Below are positions 5,604 to 16,254 of a stretch of 16,254 nt of DNA, in pieces. Made by a program: the position numbers and the translations under genes. Below the pieces are notes generated by a model. That model worked only from the letters and a program-made list of their open reading frames with translations. It made no database searches and was not told the DNA's origin. The stretch's first letter is position 1. The number at the start of each line of letters is the position of its first letter. This stretch comes from Bacilli bacterium (GTDB lineage: Bacteria > Bacillota_I > Bacilli_A > RF39 > UBA660), in contig JBJEXX010000057.1 in NCBI GenBank assembly GCA_051886215.1, positions 1 to 16,254 of the forward strand, read 5' to 3'.

Positions 5604-5815
5604 TGTAAAAAACGAGGAAGAAGAAGAGTAGAATATTTTTATTAAATAGAGAGCTTATGGTTGGTGAAAATAAGTTAATAAGATATTTGAAGAAACTTTG
5701 GAGTTTAATACTTGTTAAAAAGTATTGCGAATATCCGCGTTAAGGATTTAAGATTACTTTAGTAATAAATTAAGGTGGTACCACGAGATTTCGTCCTTAT
5801 GGATGGAGTCTTTTT
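5604..5815 (+). promoter_or_regulatory. T-box riboswitch leader with Glu specifier (GAA)
   Basis: Stem I elements are GAAGAAGAGTA (5' side), the AG bulge AGAGAG and the distal loop GGTGAAA. The specifier loop reads GAA-GAA-A (S-turn GAA 5689-5691, codon GAA 5692-5694, purine 5695). The T-box core AAATTAAGGTGGTACCACG lies at ~5767-5785. The terminator is GATTTCGTCC (5787-5796) / GGATGGAGTC (5801-5810) plus T5. Confidence 0.85.
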
Positions 5816-5835
5816 ATTTTGAAAGGAGAGATAAT

Positions 5836-7497
5836 ATGACAAGTAAAGATTTAGCAAATTTAATATTTCCGGATGTGAAACATGATATTCACTATTATGA
5901 AGAAATGTATAAACCAAGAGATTTAAAAGAAGGAGAAAGAGTTACTAGAGTTGCGCCATCACCAACTGGTTATATGCATTTAGGTACTATGTTTCAAGCA
6001 CTTATTGATTATGTAATGGTGAAGAATAATGGAGGAGTATTTTATTTAAGAAATGAAGATACAGATACAGCTCGTGAAGTAGAAGGTGCGGTAAAATTAG
6101 TTATTGATACTTTAATGGATTATGATATTATACCTGATGAGTATGAAGTAGGAGAAAAGATAGTAGGATCTTATGGCCCTTATAGACAAACTTCTAGAAA
6201 AGAAATTTATCATACTTTTATTAAACATTTTATTGAAATAGGTAGAGCTTATCCTTGTTTTTGCACAAAAGAAGAATTAGATGAGTTAAGAACAAAACAA
6301 GAAAATAGAAAGTTTAGAACTGGATATTATGGAATTTGGGCTCATTGTAGAAATTTAACTATTGATGAGCAAATTGAAAAAATTAAAAATGGAGAATCTT
6401 TTGTAATTAGATTTAAATCTGAAGGTAATTTTGATAAAAAATTCTTGTTTGATGATTTAGTAAAGGGAAAAGTTGAACTTCCTGAAAATGATGAAGATTT
6501 TGTTATTATGAAATCTAATGATAAATTACCTACATATCATTTTGCTCATTTAGTAGATGATTATTTGATGAAAACTACACATGTTGTTAGAGGAGAAGAA
6601 TGGTTGCCCTCAGTTCCTAAACATATAGAATTATTTAGAGCGTTAGGTGTAAGAGGACCTAAATATATTCATACACCATTAATAGTAAAAAAAGATGGTA
6701 ATGGAGTAAGAAAATTAAGTAAAAGAAAAGATCCAGAAGCAAATATGACATACTATAAAGAATTAGGTTATCCAAGAAAAGCTATTATTGAAGCTTTAAT
6801 GACAATTATTAATTCTAATTATGAAGAATGGCATACCGCTAATCCGGACAAAGAATTTACTGATTTTACTTATAGCCCTAAAAAAATGTCTTCAAGTGGA
6901 GCATTCTTTGATTTAGAAAAATTAGATAATATTTCTAAAAATATTATTAGTCGTATGAAGGCAGAAGATGTTTATAATGAATTATATAATTGGTGTTTAG
7001 AATATGATTTAGAATTTAAAGAATTATTAGATAAGTATAAAGATTATTCAATTAATTTATTTAATATAGAAAGAGAACAAAAAAAACCTAGAAAAGATTT
7101 TACTAATTACTCTGATATTAAAAATCAAGTATGGTATATGTATGATGAATTATTTGATAATATGTTTAATGGTTATGACTTTGTTAATATAAAAGACAAA
7201 GAATTGATTACAGAGGCATGTCAAGAATATTTTAATAATTATTATGATATAAATGATGATAAAGATACTTGGTTTAATAAAATGAAAGAATGCTGTGAGT
7301 CTTTAGGATATTGTTCTAATATGAAAGAATATAAAGAAAACCCAGAAAAATATAAAGGTAGTGTTGCGGATTTTTCTACTATTATAAGGGTCGCAGTTAC
7401 TACTCGTAGTATGACTCCTGATTTATATGAAATATTAAAATTATTGGGTGAAGATAGAATAAAAACAAGAATTAATAAGTGTATTTCAAGTATTTAA
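5836..7497 (+). CDS. gltX: Glutamate--tRNA ligase (GluRS)
   Basis: Start trimmed from 5803, which lies inside the T-box terminator, to ATG 5836 with RBS AAAGGAGAG. Class I motifs are PSPTGYMHLGT (HIGH-like) and KLSKRK (KMSKS), and RNEDTD is typical of GluRS. The upstream T-box specifier GAA agrees with this call. Confidence 0.9.
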   Translation: MTSKDLANLIFPDVKHDIHYYEEMYKPRDLKEGERVTRVAPSPTGYMHLGTMFQALIDYVMVKNNGGVFYLRNEDTDTAREVEGAVKLVIDTLMDYDIIPDEYEVGEKIVGSYGPYRQTSRKEIYHTFIKHFIEIGRAYPCFCTKEELDELRTKQENRKFRTGYYGIWAHCRNLTIDEQIEKIKNGESFVIRFKSEGNFDKKFLFDDLVKGKVELPENDEDFVIMKSNDKLPTYHFAHLVDDYLMKTTHVVRGEEWLPSVPKHIELFRALGVRGPKYIHTPLIVKKDGNGVRKLSKRKDPEANMTYYKELGYPRKAIIEALMTIINSNYEEWHTANPDKEFTDFTYSPKKMSSSGAFFDLEKLDNISKNIISRMKAEDVYNELYNWCLEYDLEFKELLDKYKDYSINLFNIEREQKKPRKDFTNYSDIKNQVWYMYDELFDNMFNGYDFVNIKDKELITEACQEYFNNYYDINDDKDTWFNKMKECCESLGYCSNMKEYKENPEKYKGSVADFSTIIRVAVTTRSMTPDLYEILKLLGEDRIKTRINKCISSI

Positions 7498-7520
7498 AAA
7501 AGAGTTTTAAACTCTTTTTT
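7496..7520. terminator. Bidirectional terminator between the convergent gltX and EEP genes
   Basis: AAAAAAGAGT (7496-7505) / ACTCTTTTTT (7511-7520), loop TTTAA. Confidence 0.7.
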
Positions 7521-8259
7521 TAGTATTTTTAATAATTATATTTGCACCTATAGGATAATGATCACTAGGATAAATTCCTTTATATCTATTTGTATATTTT
7601 GTTACTTGATCATAATTTAAATCTTTAGTTATTAAAATGTGATCCAAGTGATAGATTTCTTTTATTGTAGAATAGGTTTTACCAATATCTTTTGTTATAT
7701 CAATTAGATTGTTGTCTTTACAAAAATCTTTTAAATTTCTATATCCAGTATTAAAATCTCCTGTTATCAATATAGGTTTATTCTTTGTGTTTTCTTTTAT
7801 TAATTTTGTTATACATTCTAATTGGAGTAATTTGTTTTTTTGAGGCTTATTAGTTAAATGAGTATTATAACAATAAAAATCTTCAGTTTCTATATAATTA
7901 ACTATTCTAGGAAAAAAATCATATTTAAATTTTGTTTTAGGAATTTCTGGAGTATTTGATAAAGAGTATGTTTTACTATTCATGACTTTTATATTTGTTT
8001 TTACTAATATACAATTATATTCGTCATAAATACTATTTTTTCTTAGACGACTGTGTCCATAAAAGTTATAGGTTAAATTATTAAGTTTTAATAAATATGT
8101 TAATTGTTTTTTTGCCTTATGAGTCATTTCTTGTGTACCAATAATATCTGGTTGTTCTTCTTTTATAAGTTCTACTGTAGAAATTAATCTTTCTTTCCAA
8201 TTGCTTTTTTTAAATAAAGATATGCCATCATTTCTAAGATTAATAGATAATATTTTCAT
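7507..8259 (-). CDS. Endonuclease/exonuclease/phosphatase (EEP, DNase I-like) family protein, paralog 1
   Basis: EEP motif series: SINL.N, IIGTQEM, NTHL, ITGDFN, LDHIL, SDHYPI. No signal peptide. RBS GGTGA precedes the ATG. Confidence 0.85.
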   Translation of the reverse strand: MKILSINLRNDGISLFKKSNWKERLISTVELIKEEQPDIIGTQEMTHKAKKQLTYLLKLNNLTYNFYGHSRLRKNSIYDEYNCILVKTNIKVMNSKTYSLSNTPEIPKTKFKYDFFPRIVNYIETEDFYCYNTHLTNKPQKNKLLQLECITKLIKENTKNKPILITGDFNTGYRNLKDFCKDNNLIDITKDIGKTYSTIKEIYHLDHILITKDLNYDQVTKYTNRYKGIYPSDHYPIGANIIIKNTKKRV

Positions 8260-8316
8260 ATAATCACCAACATAATTATACTATAAATAAAAAATATATA
8301 GTGTTTTTCTTATATA

Positions 8317-9063
8317 TTATTTTTTAATTTTAATTTTTGCACCTATAGGATAATGATCACTAGGATAAATTCCATTGTAGCTGTTTGTATATTTATAAAT
8401 TTCTTCTACTTCTATATCTTTACTTACTAATATATGGTCAAGTTGTGGCAATTGTTTGTTTTCTCTAAATGTTTTTCCTATATTTTTAGTTATATCTTCA
8501 AGATTATTTTCTTTACAGAATTGATCAAGTAAATAATTGTATCCCATATTAAAATCACCAGTGATTATTAGTGGTTTATTTTGATCATGATATTGTGCAA
8601 ATAGATTTGTCATACATGTTAATTGTAATTCTCTATTAATTTTAAATAAATTATCAAGATGTGTATTATAGTAATCAAAATTAATTGTTTCAATACTTGT
8701 AGTTATTCTTGGGAATACGTCTAATGGAAATTTTGATTTTGGGATCAATGGTGTGTTAGATAACGCATATGTATCAGTATCTAAAACTTTTATGTTTTCT
8801 TTTACAATTATTGCATTATATTCATCTGCAATTGAACCATTTCTAGATCTACTTTTACCATATATTTTATATGGTAAATTATAATATGAGAACAAATTAT
8901 TTAATTCATCTTTTACTTTTATAACCATTTCTTGTGTACCAATAATATCTGGTTGTTCTTCTTCTAATAGATTTAAAACAGCATTTAATCTTTTTTTCCA
9001 ATATTTATTAGAAGATGGTGGAGTTATTCCTCCATTTTTTAAATTAATAGACATTACTTTCAT
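8317..9063 (-). CDS. Endonuclease/exonuclease/phosphatase (EEP, DNase I-like) family protein, paralog 2
   Basis: Same motif series: SINL.N, IIGTQEM, NTHL, ITGDFN, LDHIL, SDHYPI. No signal peptide. RBS AAGGGTGAG precedes the ATG. Confidence 0.85.
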   Translation of the reverse strand: MKVMSINLKNGGITPPSSNKYWKKRLNAVLNLLEEEQPDIIGTQEMVIKVKDELNNLFSYYNLPYKIYGKSRSRNGSIADEYNAIIVKENIKVLDTDTYALSNTPLIPKSKFPLDVFPRITTSIETINFDYYNTHLDNLFKINRELQLTCMTNLFAQYHDQNKPLIITGDFNMGYNYLLDQFCKENNLEDITKNIGKTFRENKQLPQLDHILVSKDIEVEEIYKYTNSYNGIYPSDHYPIGAKIKIKK

Positions 9064-9119: not shown

Positions 9120-9160
9120 GAAGTTATAGAAACGAAAGGATATTATAAATTATAAAAATG

Positions 9161-9174
9161 TGATAAAATATAAT
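9161..9174 (+). promoter_or_regulatory. Possible promoter of the AAA+/vWA operon (weak call)
   Basis: TGaTAAAAT (9161-9169) overlaps TATAAT (9169-9174). No convincing -35 element was found. Confidence 0.3.
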
Positions 9175-9188
9175 AGACAATTATATTT

Positions 9189-9296
9189 ATGGATTTAAAA
9201 CTGAAAAGTTTTTTATTAAGTGGAAGATTTTTATTTGGCATTGTGTATGGTAGTTGTTTAGTGCGCGCCGCTGACGATGATGGTTCTAAGTACTAG
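9189..9296 (+). other. Upstream ORF fragment in frame with the AAA+ ATPase gene, ending at an in-frame TAG (possible disrupted 5' end)
   Basis: ATG 9189 ... TAG 9294-9296 encodes MDLKLKSFLLSGRFLFGIVYGSCLVRAADDDGSKY*. It is in the same frame as 9336-11156, and the codons after the TAG (SYSYSRHGAIRPAL) still look like protein. No RBS precedes ATG 9189. Confidence 0.4.
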
Positions 9297-9335
9297 TCTT
9301 ATAGCTATTCCCGTCATGGTGCCATTCGCCCAGCT

Positions 9336-11156
9336 TTGCAAGATTCATCTTTGATCAGAAAAATCTCCCCGAACAAAGTGAGGGGTTATAATGATACATA
9401 TGAGGTAGAATTTGGAGAATATCCTCAATATGCAGCAAGTTCTTGGATGCAAAATACTTTGAATTCAGAATATAATAGAGGTAGCCTTAAGACTACAGGA
9501 AAAACATATACTTTTGATTCAGTTAGATTTGATGATTATGATAAAAAAATGGAGCCTGTAACATATAACGAATACGAATATAATGGAGAAAAATATATTC
9601 GTCTTATGGCCAATTCTGGTAATGGTAGTACTGATTTATCAAATGGTATTAAATATAATGATGGTGACTATGTTTGGATTAAGATTGAACCTGTAAAATG
9701 GCTTATTGATGAGAAACAAGGATTATTACTTTCTAAAAAAGGTATTCTTTCTGGTATAAGATATCATACGAAAGATACAAGATATGATGGTGATTTCTCT
9801 AAGACAGAAATGAAAGCTTATTTGGATAATTATTTATCAAAAGATTTATTTAATAATTTTGTTTTAGATAATACTATTAGTTCTGTAGAAAATGGAAGAA
9901 AATCACGAATTGAAAAACTAAATCCTGATACTACTGATATTTCTGATAGGAGAGCTATGACTTATACAGAAATTATTCATAATTGGATAGAATCAGGTCA
10001 ATCAGTTTTATTAAGAGGACCAAGTGGTATTGGTAAAACAGAAAGATTAAAAACACTTTATCCAAATTTAATTTATATAAAATTAACAAATAATATGTTC
10101 CCAGAAAAAGTTGTAGGTTCAATGAATTTACAGACTGGACAAAGTATTCCTCCAGATTTTTATAAGCAAGCTTTGATGTCTTGCGCTACAGAGGAAGAAA
10201 AAAAACTAGTAAAAGAAAATGTACAAAATATTTATGATTTAGTTGATACTATTTATGAAAGATCTAAAAATAGTTCTGAAAAAGTAGTAATATTACTTGA
10301 TGAATTATTAAATGTAAAACCGGCAGTACAATCACTTGTATATACTTTAGTATTAAATAGATTAGTAGAAATAGGAAATGGATTAAAATTACCTGCTAAT
10401 ACAGTTATTGTTGCTACAGGTAATCAGAAAAAATATTCAAGTGTTGCTGAAGATTTAGCGGAACCATTAGAAAAAAGATTTGATCATATTTTAGATATGG
10501 AACCTAAAGTAGGAGAATGGATAAATGATTATGCAATTCCAAATAAAGTTCATCCTTCAGTAATTGGTTATATTTTTTCAAAATACAATCAAAAAGGAAA
10601 AAGTGAATCAATTTCGGATATGAATTATTTTTATGAAGAACCAGAAGTTGGTGATCTTCATACTGATTGTAATGGTTGCCGTGGCAGAACTAATGATCCT
10701 CGTGGTTGGGTTTCGATTTCCAATACATTATATTCATTTGAAAAAGATTTAGCGGAAGGTAAATTTATTGGTAAAGATGTAGAAAATTTACTTCAAGTAT
10801 CATTAAGTTCAAAACTTCGTGATGAATGGGCAAGAGAGTTCTTTGATTTTTATAATATTCCTACTATTTCTGTGGATGAAGTAGTTAATAAAAATTATAC
10901 TCAAGCAGATTTGCCAAGAAATATAAATGAAAGATTTGCTTGTGTTACTTCTTTACTTTTAGCTGATTTAGATCAAGTGCAATATTGTAGAGATTTTATA
11001 AGAGAAAATTGTGATCCAGAATATTTACAACTCTATGATATTTGTTGGTGTGGTAATGATGAAAGAAGAATGGAAAAGATAGTCGAATTACAAGAATGTA
11101 CTACACTAAGTGATGATATCAATATGTCTAGTGAAGGAGTTGGAATAAGAATATGA
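9336..11156 (+). CDS. AAA+ ATPase (MoxR/AAA_5-like) with a ~190-aa N-terminal FGxYPQ...W.I...LLS domain and a Cys-containing C-terminal region
   Basis: Walker A GPSGIGKT (nt 10017-10040), Walker B VVILLDE (10284-10304), sensor-1-like VIVATGN and Arg-containing EPLEKRF. The start is unresolved: none of TTG 9336, GTG 9378 or ATG 9447 has an RBS. The stop TGA 11154-11156 overlaps the next ATG. Confidence 0.75.
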   Translation: MQDSSLIRKISPNKVRGYNDTYEVEFGEYPQYAASSWMQNTLNSEYNRGSLKTTGKTYTFDSVRFDDYDKKMEPVTYNEYEYNGEKYIRLMANSGNGSTDLSNGIKYNDGDYVWIKIEPVKWLIDEKQGLLLSKKGILSGIRYHTKDTRYDGDFSKTEMKAYLDNYLSKDLFNNFVLDNTISSVENGRKSRIEKLNPDTTDISDRRAMTYTEIIHNWIESGQSVLLRGPSGIGKTERLKTLYPNLIYIKLTNNMFPEKVVGSMNLQTGQSIPPDFYKQALMSCATEEEKKLVKENVQNIYDLVDTIYERSKNSSEKVVILLDELLNVKPAVQSLVYTLVLNRLVEIGNGLKLPANTVIVATGNQKKYSSVAEDLAEPLEKRFDHILDMEPKVGEWINDYAIPNKVHPSVIGYIFSKYNQKGKSESISDMNYFYEEPEVGDLHTDCNGCRGRTNDPRGWVSISNTLYSFEKDLAEGKFIGKDVENLLQVSLSSKLRDEWAREFFDFYNIPTISVDEVVNKNYTQADLPRNINERFACVTSLLLADLDQVQYCRDFIRENCDPEYLQLYDICWCGNDERRMEKIVELQECTTLSDDINMSSEGVGIRI

Positions 11157-11542
11157 ATAAACAATTAGTAGAACTACAAAGAGGCTGTAAAGCCACTTGT
11201 GTTGTAATTTTAGAGGAACAATGTAAATATTTGGAAAAAGGAATTGCCATGGAGGCTAAAATAGGAGATGACTATTTATTTGCTAGACCATATGGTAATC
11301 CAATTTTTCGAGAAAAACTTGATCGTCTTTCAAAAGAACAATCTTTAGTATATTTTGTAATAAATAGAATTAATGAAATTAATGAAGATATGCAAAATAG
11401 ATATATAGGCCTAGTGAAAGATAGAGAATTTGGTGGATATAATTTAGCTGATAATGTAATTATTGTTTTAACGATTGGTAAAAAAGAAGATTTAAAGAAA
11501 ATTTCTAAAGAACTTTATCATTTTTGTGTTGTGGCTTTTTAG
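11153..11542 (+). CDS. Small hypothetical protein (129 aa) resembling a P-loop-less AAA+ core fragment
   Basis: ATGA start/stop overlap with the ATPase gene. Its stop TAG (11540-11542) sits inside the RBS of the next gene. QSLVYFVINRINEI and NVIIVLTIGKK match QSLVYTLVLNRLVEI and NTVIVATGNQKK of the upstream ATPase. Confidence 0.7.
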   Translation: MNKQLVELQRGCKATCVVILEEQCKYLEKGIAMEAKIGDDYLFARPYGNPIFREKLDRLSKEQSLVYFVINRINEINEDMQNRYIGLVKDREFGGYNLADNVIIVLTIGKKEDLKKISKELYHFCVVAF

Positions 11543-11550
11543 GTGCAATT

Positions 11551-12930
11551 ATGGAGTTAGATAGAAATTTACTTTATAATGCTAAAAGATTATTATTAGC
11601 TAGATATTCACGATTTGGAAGTGATATTGCCAATATAAATATTGAATATAATACTAATTTAAAATACCATACCGCAGCTACTGATGGTAAAACTATATTT
11701 TTTGATCCTGATTATTTAGCTAGTTTAAGTGAGGATGATACTATATTTTTAATTGCTCATGAGATAATGCATATTAAATTTAATCATGTTTTTAGGTTAA
11801 TAGATAAAAATGGTAATAAAAGAGATATGGATATTTGGAATGAGACTACAGACGCTATAATAAATGCCAATCTTGAAAGAGATGGTTTTAAAATAAAGGA
11901 AGGTTATGTTAATAGGCTGGGAGCTTTAAAATATAGTGCCGAAGAACTTTATGAAATAATAAAAAAAGAAAAAGAAGAAAAAAATAGTCAAGATAATCAA
12001 AATGGTCAAGGACAATCTGATAATAATGATTCTTCTGAAAAAAGTAATCAAGATAATCAACATATAGGTGATGATCATAGTCTTTGGGAAGAAGCATTTT
12101 CAAAACAAAATAATGATAATATAAATGAAAATAATAATGATAATAGTGAAACTAATTCAAGTGAAGATGTAAAAAGTTCATCTTATAGTGTGAATGAGTT
12201 TGAAGAATTTTCTAAAAATAGGCAAGAACGTAGAAACATAGCAAAAGAGTCTTTAAATCGCATTAAAGAAGAAATGTTAAGAAATTTTAATAAAGATTCA
12301 GCTTTTAAAAATGTTAATTTAGGCAGTGTAGGAGAAAGTAAGAACGAAATGGATTGGAGGTCTTTATTACGCAGAGAAGTAGAAAAAACAGAAACTATTT
12401 GGTCACAAAGACGTTCTATTGCAGAAAATAATTATGCATATAGATTAGAAGAAGAGGATATAGAAGATGAAGCTTTGACAGAAGTAATGATAGATGTATC
12501 TGGTTCAGTGGATTTAGATTTGGTTAGGGCTTTTTTAAGAATGCTAAAACCAATACTTAAAGAATCCAAATTACGTGTAGGATGTTTTAATGAAAAATTT
12601 TGGGGTATGGTTGATATTAACTCTATTGCAGATATTGATAATTTTACTATTCCGGATGAAGCTAGGGGACATTCGGCTTGGACTGAAGATTGGGATTTAG
12701 CAGTTAGATCTTTTTCTAAAAAAAGAGAAGTTAATAAAATAGTTTTTACTGATGGGGAACCTTGTCCTGGCACTATGCCTAAACCTGATTTAGCAGGTGA
12801 AAATGTAATTTGGCTAGTATATGGTAATGATAATTTTAAACCATGTTGTGGTAAAGTTATTACTATAACGGAAAAATATCTTGAACAATTGCAAACTATT
12901 AATACGAAAGATGTAATAAAATCAAGGTAA
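11551..12930 (+). CDS. Zn-metallopeptidase-like (HExxHxxxxH) / low-complexity linker / vWA-like (MIDAS) fusion protein (DUF2201-type architecture as I recall it)
   Basis: Start trimmed from 11524 to ATG 11551, with RBS AGGTG at 11541-11545. Motifs are TAATDGKTIFFDP, then HEIMHIKFNH (nt 11758-11787) and WNETTDAIIN. An N/D/S/Q/E-rich linker spans nt ~11959-12183. The MIDAS-like DVSGS lies at nt 12493-12507, with IVFTDGE downstream. Confidence 0.85.
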   Translation: MELDRNLLYNAKRLLLARYSRFGSDIANINIEYNTNLKYHTAATDGKTIFFDPDYLASLSEDDTIFLIAHEIMHIKFNHVFRLIDKNGNKRDMDIWNETTDAIINANLERDGFKIKEGYVNRLGALKYSAEELYEIIKKEKEEKNSQDNQNGQGQSDNNDSSEKSNQDNQHIGDDHSLWEEAFSKQNNDNINENNNDNSETNSSEDVKSSSYSVNEFEEFSKNRQERRNIAKESLNRIKEEMLRNFNKDSAFKNVNLGSVGESKNEMDWRSLLRREVEKTETIWSQRRSIAENNYAYRLEEEDIEDEALTEVMIDVSGSVDLDLVRAFLRMLKPILKESKLRVGCFNEKFWGMVDINSIADIDNFTIPDEARGHSAWTEDWDLAVRSFSKKREVNKIVFTDGEPCPGTMPKPDLAGENVIWLVYGNDNFKPCCGKVITITEKYLEQLQTINTKDVIKSR

Positions 12931-12983: not shown

Positions 12984-13011
12984 AATAATATCTTTTTAAG
13001 ATATTATTTTT
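12984..13011 (+). terminator. Rho-independent terminator of the AAA+/vWA operon
   Basis: AATAATATCTT (12984-12994) / AAGATATTATT (12998-13008), loop TTT, followed by TTT. Confidence 0.65.
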
Positions 13012-13013
13012 AT

Positions 13014-13090
13014 GGTCTGTTGGTGAAGTGGCTTAACACATCGCCCTCTCAAGGCGACATTCACGGATTCGAATTCCGTACAGACTACCA
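13014..13090 (+). tRNA. tRNA-Glu (anticodon CUC)
   Basis: Hand-folded cloverleaf: acceptor GGTCTGT/ACAGACT, anticodon stem TCGCC/GGCGA, loop CTCTCAA, T-arm ACGGA-TTCGAAT-TCCGT. CCA is encoded. The layout closely parallels Bacillus tRNA-Glu. Confidence 0.9.
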
Positions 13091-13150: not shown

Positions 13151-13184
13151 AAAAAATGTTGAATAATTCAACATTTATTTTTTT
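13151..13184. terminator. Hairpin terminator between the convergent tRNA-Glu and tRNA-Gln
   Basis: ATGTTGAA (13156-13163) / TTCAACAT (13167-13174), flanked by an A-run and a T-run, so it could act on either strand. Confidence 0.6.
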
Positions 13185-13258
13185 GGTTGCCCTGATTGGA
13201 TTCGAACCAATGATGATGGAGTCAGAGTCCACTGCCTTACCGCTTGGCTACAGGGCAA
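13185..13258 (-). tRNA. tRNA-Gln (anticodon CUG)
   Basis: The reverse complement folds as TGCCCTG-TA-GCCAAGCGGTAAGGC-A-GTGGA-CTCTGAC-TCCAT-CATC-ATTGG-TTCGAAT-CCAAT-CAGGGCA-A-CCA. The U1-A72 pair and the GCCAAGCGGTAAGGC D-arm are typical of tRNA-Gln. Confidence 0.9.
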
Positions 13259-14949: not shown

Positions 14950-15025
14950 TGGTGTCCCCTTAGGGATTCGAACCCTAGACCCACTGATTAAGAGTCAGTT
15001 GCTCTACCAACTGAGCTAAGGAGAC
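14950..15025 (-). tRNA. tRNA-Lys (anticodon CUU)
   Basis: The reverse complement folds as GTCTCCT-TA-GCTC-AGTTGGTA-GAGC-A-ACTGA-CTCTTAA-TCAGT-GGGTC-TAGGG-TTCGAAT-CCCTA-AGGGGAC-A-CCA. Confidence 0.9.
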
Positions 15026-15129: not shown

Positions 15130-15147
15130 TTGTCGGTGGTGAGACAT

Positions 15148-16254
15148 ATGAAAAAAGTTGTTATTGGTATGAGTGGTGGAGTAGATTCATCAGTTGCGGC
15201 TATACTTTTAAAAAAGCAAGGCTATGAAGTTATTGGACTTTTTATGAGAAATTGGGATAGTTTTGTTAATAATGATATTGAGGGAAATCCTAATTTGGGA
15301 AATAATATTTGTCCACAAGAGCAAGATTATAATGATGCTTTAGAAGTATGCAATAAAATAGGTATTCCATTACATAGAATAGATTTTATAAAAGAATATT
15401 GGGATAATGTATTTACTTACTTTTTGGATGAATTAAAAAAAGGAAGAACTCCTAATCCTGATATTATGTGCAACAAATATATTAAATTTGATTATTTTGT
15501 CAGAGAAGCAAAAAGATTGGGTGCCGATTATATTGCGACAGGTCATTATGCAAAAATAGAAAATGGTCGTCTTATGAGAAGTCATGATAAAAATAAAGAT
15601 CAAACTTATTTCTTATCACAATTATCTGAAAAACAACTTGAAAATGTTTTGTTTCCACTTGGTGACATAGATAAACCTGAAGTAAGAAAAATTGCTTTAG
15701 AATATGATTTAATTACTGCTAAAAAGAAAGATTCAACAGGTATTTGCTTTATAGGTGAGAGAAATTTTAAAGGATTTTTAAAAAATTATTTACCTAGTCA
15801 AAAAGGAAAGATTATTGATATTGATACAAATGAAGAATTAGGTACACATATAGGATTAATGTATTATACAATTGGTCAAAGAAGAGGACTTGAAGTAGGG
15901 GGAACTAAAGATAAGTTATTTGTTGTAGGTAAAGATTTAAATAAAAATATTTTATATGTTGCTGAAGGAGAAGATAATAAATATCTTTATTCTAATAGTT
16001 GTATAGTAGAAGATGTTAATTTCAATTGTGCTGAACGCCCTACAAAATGTACAGCAAAATTTAGATATCGTGCAGTTGATTATCCAATAGAAATTAAATA
16101 TTTAGAGGATGGTAATTTACTGGTGAGTTATGATAGTATTAAAGCAGTAACTCCAGGACAAGCATGTGTTTTTTATGATGGTGAATATTGTTTAGGTGGG
16201 GGTATTATTAAAGAAGTTAGAAAAAATAATAAAAAATTGTGGTATTTATTATAG
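15148..16254 (+). CDS. mnmA: tRNA-specific 2-thiouridylase MnmA
   Basis: Start trimmed to ATG 15148, with RBS GGTGGTGAG upstream. Motifs are the PP-loop [22 protein letters not shown] and DQTYFL, with a catalytic Cys in GICFIGE. Stop TAG lies at 16252-16254. Confidence 0.93.

Follow-up and report, generated by a model that had tools for sequence, protein, structure and literature searches.

The three-gene operon at 9336-12930 of contig JBJEXX010000057.1, from a metagenome-assembled genome (MAG) of an uncultured Bacilli bacterium, encodes an AAA+ ATPase (gene 1), a small AAA-like protein (gene 2) and a protein that joins a metallopeptidase to a von Willebrand factor A (vWA)-like domain (gene 3). 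We refer to the whole stretch analysed, 16,254 nucleotides of this 26% G+C contig, as the window. We found that the three genes belong to a large, previously undescribed family of gut and rumen Firmicutes which, in its complete form, is the target cassette of a diversity-generating retroelement (DGR); sequence comparison strongly indicates that the window copy has suffered a deletion, apparently by recombination between a template repeat (TR) and a variable repeat (VR). Taken as a whole, a DGR-target family, a TR × VR deletion in the window and a sensor-ATPase-protease mechanism make the best explanation of these observations, and one that we consider probable.

A family of DGR target cassettes in gut and rumen bacteria

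Database searches returned 829 homologous ATPases, 86 small proteins and 998 peptidase-vWA proteins at 42-71% identity (mostly 55-70%), counts that place the three genes far beyond chance. These homologues come from gut or rumen metagenomes, and the nearest are about 68-70% identical to the window proteins. When one genome was scanned for each species, 75 loci came up, hosted by uncultured Clostridia, Bacilli, 'Tenericutes' or Christensenella MAGs with the sole exception of a contig binned to an Alistipes finegoldii isolate; genes 2 and 3 follow the ATPase in 54 of the 65 loci with downstream sequence, the co-occurrence that a first-pass annotation of the window had proposed to test. Scanning 2.9 million viral contigs for the ATPase gave one weak match, so the cassette is not phage-borne. 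Targeted full-text literature searches found no paper describing the gut cassette, and large DGR surveys may list it in their supplements.

DGR components were counted in the 66 loci with at least 2.3 kb of upstream sequence. A full reverse transcriptase (RT; RVT_1 match, E 1e-20) lies directly upstream of the trio in 27 of these, with RT fragments in 7 more, and a bAvd-like gene, matched in full length though under threshold (E 1.6e-5 to 1.6e-3), stands ahead of the repeat in 27 loci. The complete cassette reads avd, leader, TR, RT, one to three ATPase genes, small AAA-like gene and peptidase-vWA gene. At locus L006, an RVT_1 RT lies just upstream of the ATPase, and a 78-nt repeat (the TR, 8221-8298) differs from its copy in the ATPase N-terminal region at six positions, all adenines in the upstream copy. 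We found 21 such TR/VR pairs; in the 19 that align without gaps, 227 of 256 mismatches fall at TR adenines, against an adenine content of 33.5% (binomial p = 2e-75). The TRs read ARVVNNNGNDNNNNVNNRNNGARP, the classic AAY design, and about 12-17 codons of the VR are rewritten at template adenines. Sixteen near-identical 738-aa proteins carry 8 VR alleles, substitutions being about ten times as dense in the VR as elsewhere, and in several loci a single TR serves two tandem ATPase paralogues (for example, L013 and L015). This link to a DGR, the most informative feature of the family, had escaped the first-pass annotation.

The nearest phage relatives of the RT are gut-phage DGR RTs, with phage nd12 first at 41% identity; nd12 has a DUF6273-domain target downstream of its RT, the variable repeat lying towards the 5' end (PMC10743442).

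Several observations concern the build of the cassettes. Between avd and TR, all complete cassettes share a conserved non-coding element of about 45 nt, the leader (GGATTTTAGGTTGAAAAGCCTTTAATTAAGAAGAAAATT; 8135-8220 of L006 and equivalents), which might act as a promoter or form a structure at the 5' end of the DGR RNA. Tandem duplication of the ATPase is frequent (L012, L013, L015, L016, L023, L024, L025, L033, L038 and L060) and reaches three copies, each with its own VR and with one TR serving all. Two proteins, P0208 and P0251, are longer than the rest at 962-971 aa; in P0208 a second copy of the N-terminal module starts at about residue 270. One subfamily has an extra conserved 159-aa gene, without a Pfam match, between the ATPase and the AAA-like gene (9124-9603 of L002 and 30 other places); it is absent from the window. 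At L002 (1-16331) the cassette sits inside an inserted element with an IS66 transposase and a serine recombinase that splits a glycoside hydrolase 94 gene, and fragments of this gene on both sides suggest that the element is mobile.

The diversified domain of the full-length ATPases

The ATPase has its VR at about residues 60-100, within a DUF6273-like domain that is cytoplasmic. In 7 of 20 members the ATPase N terminus is matched by the last third of the DUF6273 profile (best E 9e-5), and in 3 by Fib_succ_major; for the first 294 residues, AlphaFold2 (AF2) gives a single compact domain, modelled confidently, with a predicted local distance difference test (pLDDT) score of 88 and a predicted template modelling (pTM) score of 0.87. 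Foldseek searches of this 294-aa sensor model against PDB and BFVD returned nothing significant, the best relevant match being a phage DUF6273 protein (E 0.067, template modelling (TM) score 0.25). These searches therefore do not demonstrate a C-type-lectin fold for the sensor domain and could not reproduce the assignment that the literature makes for DUF6273. By hhalign, the hairpin motif alone aligned with the larger nd12 target (E 0.002, probability 14%), and the smaller nd12 target gave no alignment. An N-terminal sensor-like domain had earlier been ascribed to the window ATPase; in the homologues that domain is the DGR target, whereas in the window its 5' part appears to be deleted and is interrupted by a TAG.

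Leader remnant and hybrid repeat in the window

The first-pass annotation ran gene 1 from an ATG at 9189, as the start of an intact, autonomous ATPase-gated protease defence module whose ATPase has its own N-terminal sensor. The frame of that ATG meets a TAG at 9294-9296, and gene 1 does not run from there. TAG does act as a stop in this organism: it closes gene 2 at the very residue at which all homologues of gene 2 stop, and it also closes an open reading frame (ORF) at 104-772. A reading of TAG as a sense codon was therefore ruled out. The ATG itself (9189-9191) falls in a remnant of the non-coding DGR leader and is thus a chance ATG: an alignment of window positions 9130-9345 with the pre-TR regions of seven complete cassettes (L006, L010, L030, L031, L034, L037 and L068), plus L028, has many invariant columns (GATT..GAAA..TTT.ATTAAG..AA.ATTT). 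About 65 N-terminal residues conserved in homologues are gone, and tblastn with the N-terminal module found nothing in the window. Conserved catalytic motifs, tight coupling of the genes and the lack of a client enzyme would suit an intact module, but the genuine stop, the leader and the missing residues make it very improbable.

The repeat that follows the leader combines a 5' constant GCGCGCC, a VR-like, adenine-poor variable stretch and a VR-type 3' end, CGCCCAGCTTTG, with one extra codon. It encodes VRAADDDGSKY*SYSYSRHGAIRPAL, in the same layout as the ARVVxxxGxxxxxxVxxRxxGARPAL of homologues, the extra codon giving GAIRPAL in place of GARPAL. TR 3' ends read CCAGATTCAC, whereas VR and window 3' ends read CCAGCTTT. 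In the window we found no RT, avd or N-terminal module, no second repeat copy or separate TR (repeat search, blastn and tblastn), and no Rfam match at 9190-9340. One locus resembles the window: L028 has the same leader-hybrid-ATPase junction, with avd still ahead. 'Short-form' ATPases at L086 and L087 were considered as shared deletions and rejected, as these are VR-nonsense alleles of complete cassettes.

We propose that recombination between TR and VR, acting as direct repeats, would have cut out the RT gene together with the spacer and some 65 codons of the ATPase, fusing the leader to a VR-type repeat, with avd presumably also lost from the window copy. The gain of an extra codon at the repeat 3' end suggests that the deletion is not very recent. 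The NCBI-annotated 'AAA family ATPase' of the window is a truncated gene. Its homologues of full length have 700-747 aa, about 100 residues more at the N terminus than the window ORF, which still has the AAA core, the conserved C-terminal region and what is left of the sensor domain, rich in beta structure, and has lost the VR-bearing N-terminal part. The earliest possible start past the TAG is TTG 9336, the NCBI annotation of 592 aa corresponds to GTG 9378, and no Shine-Dalgarno sequence is visible before 9336, 9378 or the next ATG. We infer that the window ATPase is now without a credible start, ribosome-binding site or hypervariable hairpin, genes 2 and 3 being intact, and that the copy is a sensor-less, DGR-less derivative, either a relic or a constitutively uncoupled module.

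It is possible, if doubtful, that the truncated operon is functional and under selection, with an ATPase translated from 9336 or 9378 working with the peptidase-vWA protein either constitutively or on a different trigger. The absence of a Shine-Dalgarno sequence speaks against this, as do the private changes of gene 1 at otherwise invariant columns, which number 5 against a family median of 1 (genes 2 and 3 have 1 each); moreover, AF2 places the missing segment inside one compact domain, so its loss has probably destabilised that domain. Yet the three ORFs are open and keep the family-invariant residues, and the genes are undecayed even though the repeat 3' end has drifted by an extra codon. 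About half of the family loci, without an RT, keep intact cassettes, and VR-nonsense short forms are common in RT-linked ones, both of which fit a truncated but working operon.

Stop codons templated in the repeats

In-frame stop codons (TAA, TGA or TAG) are encoded by 9 of the 21 TRs (L006 at 8221-8298, L031, L032, L034, L039, L042, L048, L068 and L086), at recurrent hypervariable positions. The assembled VR keeps the stop in 7 of these 9 and has Trp or Cys in the other 2, and all VR stops fall at templated-stop positions. The 'short' database ATPases of 593-599 aa (L006, L086 and L087) are nonsense alleles of otherwise complete cassettes. The window TAG shares its position with the stops of four TRs, L032 (TGA) and L034, L039 and L086 (TAA), and would be the fossil of a stop templated there by related TRs.

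Templated stops may be an ON/OFF switch, a route to aromatic residues or tolerated damage. As a tentative proposal, the family may perform an intracellular, antibody-like recognition, in which the DGR continuously rewrites the binding hairpin of an AAA+ ATPase, this ATPase gates a zinc protease tethered to vWA, and the nonsense codon templated by many of these DGRs adds a stochastic ON/OFF switch to the diversification. If this were true, full-length sensor would come, in those cassettes, only from adenine-mutagenised copies, and the family would represent both a new architectural class of DGR target, a motor protein with an N-terminal VR, and a way of using DGRs that is itself new.

Organization of the operon and its products

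The three genes form one operon (Table 1). The longest open frames, all on one strand, are 9336-11156, 11153-11542 and 11524-12930; genes 1 and 2 overlap by an ATGA at 11153-11156, an arrangement of translational coupling, and the TAG of gene 2 (11540-11542) lies inside a TAGGTG, 8 nt ahead of the gene 3 ATG at 11551. Downstream, a perfect A/U-rich hairpin of 11 bp (12984-13008; -7.2 kcal/mol, z = -3.5) is followed by a U run; a G+C-based terminator scan did not pick it up. None of the three products has a hydrophobic segment and all appear cytoplasmic. The window copies keep family-invariant residues in three open ORFs, and the gene 3 product is 100% identical to NCBI entry ACI4OT_02915.

Table 1. 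Features of the operon and of the region ahead of it, in window coordinates.
Feature	Position	Strand	Remarks
Leader remnant	9190..9240	+	Homologous to the conserved non-coding leader between avd and TR
VR-type repeat, TR/VR hybrid	9262..9335	+	Directly after the leader
In-frame TAG	9294..9296	+	Four codons past the invariant Gly of the VR
Gene 1	9336..11156	+	AAA+ ATPase (AAA_5), 606 aa as longest ORF
Walker A, GPSGIGKT	10017..10040	+	Lys234 at 10035-10037; invariant in 21 homologues
Walker B, VVILLDE	10284..10304	+	V318, I319, L321, D322 and E323 invariant (21 ATPase homologues)
Gene 2	11153..11542	+	129-aa protein, AAA+ alpha/beta-like fold, no P-loop
Gene 3	11551..12930	+	Metallopeptidase (DUF2201_N, minigluzincin-like) and VWA-like domain, 459 aa
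Zinc-site motif, HEIMHIKFNH	11758..11787	+	H70, E71, H74 and H79; Glu71 at 11761-11763
MIDAS-type motif, DVSGS	12493..12507	+	D315, S317, G318 and S319 invariant
Hairpin and U tract	12984..13013	+	A/U-rich; likely intrinsic terminator of the operon

Gene 1 matches Pfam AAA_5 at 28.3 bits (cut-off 22) and the phage family phrog_1297 (E 9e-33). Besides its Walker motifs it has sensor-1 VATGN, of which TGN is invariant in homologues, and EPLEKRF. The MoxR clade proper is defined by a helix-2 insert, a pre-sensor-1 hairpin and relationship to MoxR-type models or solved members; the signal for it here is AAA_3, which reaches E 0.05-0.07 in homologues. Against PDB sequences, the gene 1 family profile found no chain at E <= 0.1, and a single-sequence search was likewise empty.

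Gene 2 gave no profile match in a Pfam scan. Its AF2 model is confident (pLDDT 90), and in Foldseek it matches only AAA+ alpha/beta domains (E about 2e-4 to 1e-3, TM score 0.5-0.6), with FlrC, NtrC1, MgsA, Lon and RFC as best neighbours. A resemblance to the B domain of staphylococcal protein A was considered and rejected: phmmer matched engineered protein A repeats in PDB (E 9e-8), with no stretch passing alone, and the match spans one helical segment, residues 57-98 (KEQSLVYFVINRINEINEDMQNRYIGLVKD). Because the AF2 model is an alpha/beta AAA-like fold, we judge this match to be compositional.

The N-terminal part of gene 3 matches DUF2201_N at 76 bits (cut-off 23.2), as do 32 of 32 homologues. 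Across these, H70, H74 and H79 never vary and E71 is conserved in at least 90%; T400, D401 and G402, within FTDGE, are also invariant. In the C-terminal half, the VWA-like DUF2201 profile scores 14.7 bits, under its cut-off of 26.4, yet covers profile positions 3-122 of 123; in the homologues it reaches E <= 0.1 in 22 of 32, with a best E of 3e-4. The phage family phrog_1314 matches the protein along its full length (E 4e-39), and the gene 3 family profile matches the minigluzincin selecase MJ1213 around the HExxH helix (E 2.7e-5). Selecase (PDB 4QHF-4QHJ) is a stand-alone protein of 110 aa, whereas here the domain has about 190 aa and is fused to vWA.

Much of what the first-pass annotation reported of the operon stands: the tightly packed same-strand genes with their ATGA overlap and TAGGTG stop placement, the terminator, and the catalytic motifs of genes 1 (Walker A, Walker B, VATGN and EPLEKRF) and 3 (HEIMHIKFNH, DVSGS and FTDGE) are all present, the motifs being invariant or nearly so in 21 ATPase and 32 peptidase-vWA homologues, respectively; only the gene 1 start at 9189 failed. 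Its description of gene 2 as an AAA fragment agrees with the AAA+ alpha/beta fold without a P-loop. Of its expectations from profile searches, AAA_5 on gene 1 came out above the Pfam gathering threshold and so did the DUF2201_N peptidase on gene 3, while the VWA-like DUF2201 remained below.

Genomic context and the search for a client

An AAA_5 ATPase beside a vWA protein with a metal-ion-dependent adhesion site (MIDAS) raises the alternative of a MoxR-type chaperone that matures a client protein rather than a conflict system; a MoxR-type ATPase with an adjacent vWA protein is the mark of RavA-ViaA, CbbQ-CbbO and NorQ-NorD. We surveyed 150 flanking ORFs of 30 homologous loci and found no recurring client gene, with no family in more than 4 of the 150. 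The contexts all differ: GNAT acetyltransferases, helix-turn-helix regulators, a few integrases or serine recombinases and housekeeping genes, with only the cassette shared. The vWA protein also has its own peptidase, cassettes occur as tandem duplicates and in some cases inside mobile elements (L002), and the ligand-binding domain of the ATPase is deliberately hypermutated, so that a fixed client makes no sense. We therefore regard a maturation role as improbable.

The window flanks are likewise housekeeping genes without a client metalloenzyme: BipA, MurD, GltX with its T-box, two paralogues of the endonuclease/exonuclease/phosphatase (EEP) family, a cyclophilin, MnmA and tRNAs. The first-pass annotation was right that a client enzyme is missing, and its view of the trio as an uncharacterised module agrees with a PADLOC-DB v2 scan of the trio, which gave no named defence system, gene 1 having only a weak partial match to DolB (27 bits) and genes 2 and 3 none. 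One of its contextual arguments fell away: the nuclease-like pair and tRNAs that it cited are not part of family neighbourhoods. The flanks of the homologues, which it had suggested examining for defence islands, do not appear to be such islands, PADLOC matches among the 150 ORFs being sparse and scattered.

Other features of the window lie outside the operon. A T-box leader (5606-5801, 115 bits) precedes the glutamyl-tRNA synthetase gene (5803-7497). The tandem EEP-family genes (7507-8259 and 8317-9063, minus strand) are 73% identical over 200 nt. Three tRNAs, all with C34 (Glu-CUC, Gln-CUG and Lys-CUU), lie beside mnmA (13014-13090, 13184-13257, 14950-15025 and 15130-16254); MnmA thiolates U34 of Glu, Gln and Lys tRNAs. 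Rfam found one T-box and two tRNAs in the window, tRNA-Glu coming from ARAGORN only and scoring under the Rfam gathering score. Two overlapping, similar coiled-coil ORFs at 104-772 and 687-1451 (222 and 254 aa) have no Pfam match.

Proposed mechanism and relation to known systems

The complete system is most likely a hypervariable cytoplasmic sensor that drives an ATPase-gated protease. Its hypervariable surface would bind an unpredictable intracellular ligand, for which a protein from a phage or another invader is the most plausible candidate; this binding would alter the assembly or activity of the ATPase, which would act on the MIDAS/vWA domain of its partner, as in MoxR-vWA pairs, and thereby release or position the partner's zinc peptidase to cleave its target. 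For the AAA-like protein without a P-loop, a role as cap or regulator of the ring is probable. The earlier reading of the operon as an ATPase-gated protease module was thus partly right but incomplete: its domains and the absence of a client hold, whereas the intact sensor and the genomic context do not, and the DGR was omitted.

A defence function would fit this mechanism, but variable-target recognition could also serve ends other than immunity to phage, such as discrimination of kin or competitors, proteolysis regulated by changing cues from host or diet, or control of other mobile elements. Cellular DGR targets are mostly ligand-binding proteins whose ligands are unknown (PMC8144416), and no clear defence-island context is seen; related ATPase and peptidase-vWA pairs are found in phages of the N4 type and, among genes for toxins and antitoxins, on a plasmid of Synechocystis. 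The three proteins, however, have no signal peptides or membrane segments, so the ligand must be intracellular, which favours invaders, and the closest described analogues are read as conflict systems (PMC7159879, PMC10907252). On balance a role outside immunity seems unlikely, if less so than that of a chaperone.

Those analogues are the DGR-linked MoxR-vWA ternary conflict systems of the VMAP type, predicted in cyanobacteria and purple sulfur bacteria (Kaur et al. 2020, PMC7159879; Doré et al. 2024, PMC10907252). Like the gut family, they combine an AAA+ ATPase, a vWA protein and a third component, place the DGR on a ligand-binding domain, and are cytoplasmic with a presumed peptidase output. 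In the VMAP type, however, the variable C-type-lectin/FGS domain is C-terminal on the vWA protein, whereas the gut VR lies near the ATPase N terminus; effector/FGS domains are C-terminal to vWA there, whereas the zinc peptidase is N-terminal to it here; the third component is VMAP, iSTAND, FtsH or a beta-propeller rather than a 129-aa P-loop-less AAA-like protein without a Pfam match; and the hosts are multicellular bacteria rather than unicellular gut Firmicutes. With the defining features of ternary systems taken from PMC7159879, which the gut family lacks, it is a new variant and not a member of them.

The same variable hairpin recurs in the DUF6273 DGR targets of gut phages, namely tentaclins and those of Faecalibacterium prophages (PMC10743442, PMC11792537). 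They have a related RT (41% to nd12) with the target downstream of it, and share with the gut family the motif GWYW...aRvV...G......V..R..GaRPal, located at the C-terminal end of DUF6273. What is diversified in the phages are Ig-domain proteins of the virion or surface; in the gut family, which is nearly absent from viral contigs, it is a cytoplasmic ATPase to which the module is fused, and the DUF6273 profile matches with its last third only, at the extreme N terminus.

The two-gene core occurs without a DGR as pairs of a MoxR-like ATPase and a DUF2201_N/DUF2201 protein, on Synechocystis pSYSA and as N4 gene 24 and its neighbour in Schitoviridae, where the genes overlap or abut as they do here. 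The ATPases of these pairs, which are uncharacterised too, have about 340 aa with no N-terminal sensor and no C-terminal extension, there is no middle gene, and over the peptidase part only some 30-35% of positions are identical to gene 3. In N4-like phages the VWA-like metallopeptidase (for example, NC_049463.1; phrog_1314) is called 'HNH endonuclease' in RefSeq and PHROGs and metallopeptidase in the GenBank originals; the former label is probably a propagated mis-annotation. A further comparison can be made with McrBC-type systems, in which an AAA_5 NTPase with an N-terminal target-recognition domain works with a partner effector. The likeness is a variable N-terminal sensor on an AAA_5 motor with a separate effector; the McrBC effector is a PD-(D/E)xK nuclease, whereas here it is a vWA-peptidase, with no evidence of DNA binding.

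Several points weigh against the explanation that we favour. About half of the loci have no RT nearby, which means that diversification is not an obligatory feature. The MoxR assignment would follow from a single Pfam match, AAA_5 at 28 bits, and the VWA-like match of gene 3 is under the Pfam threshold; the sensor-domain model has no significant structural neighbour and does not appear to bear out a C-type-lectin-like fold. The flanks show no clear enrichment for defence genes, and no PADLOC system matched. The ORFs of the window are intact and keep their invariant residues, so the copy may be a relic or may still be useful. Its TR × VR junction could in principle be an artefact of assembly; the additional loss of avd, the shortness of the constant stretch that is shared and the drift of the repeat 3' end make that unlikely. 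Finally, a defence function of the family, like its putative ligand and protease substrate, is a prediction from sequence.

Implications

The window itself is the more modest part of these findings, a sensor-less remnant which points to a probable route, TR × VR recombination, by which such cassettes decay. To our knowledge, DGRs are densest in the human gut and almost all of their known targets are surface or virion proteins with a C-terminal VR. The complete family is a compact four-to-six-gene cassette, found in hundreds of gut metagenome contigs, in which a hypermutated domain sits on a cytoplasmic ATPase that appears to be wired to a protease, and it offers testable handles in its Walker A, HExxH and MIDAS residues and its templated stop codons. 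It supports the idea, put forward for multicellular cyanobacteria and purple sulfur bacteria, that targeted hypermutation may serve recognition inside the cell, and would extend that idea to ordinary gut anaerobes.

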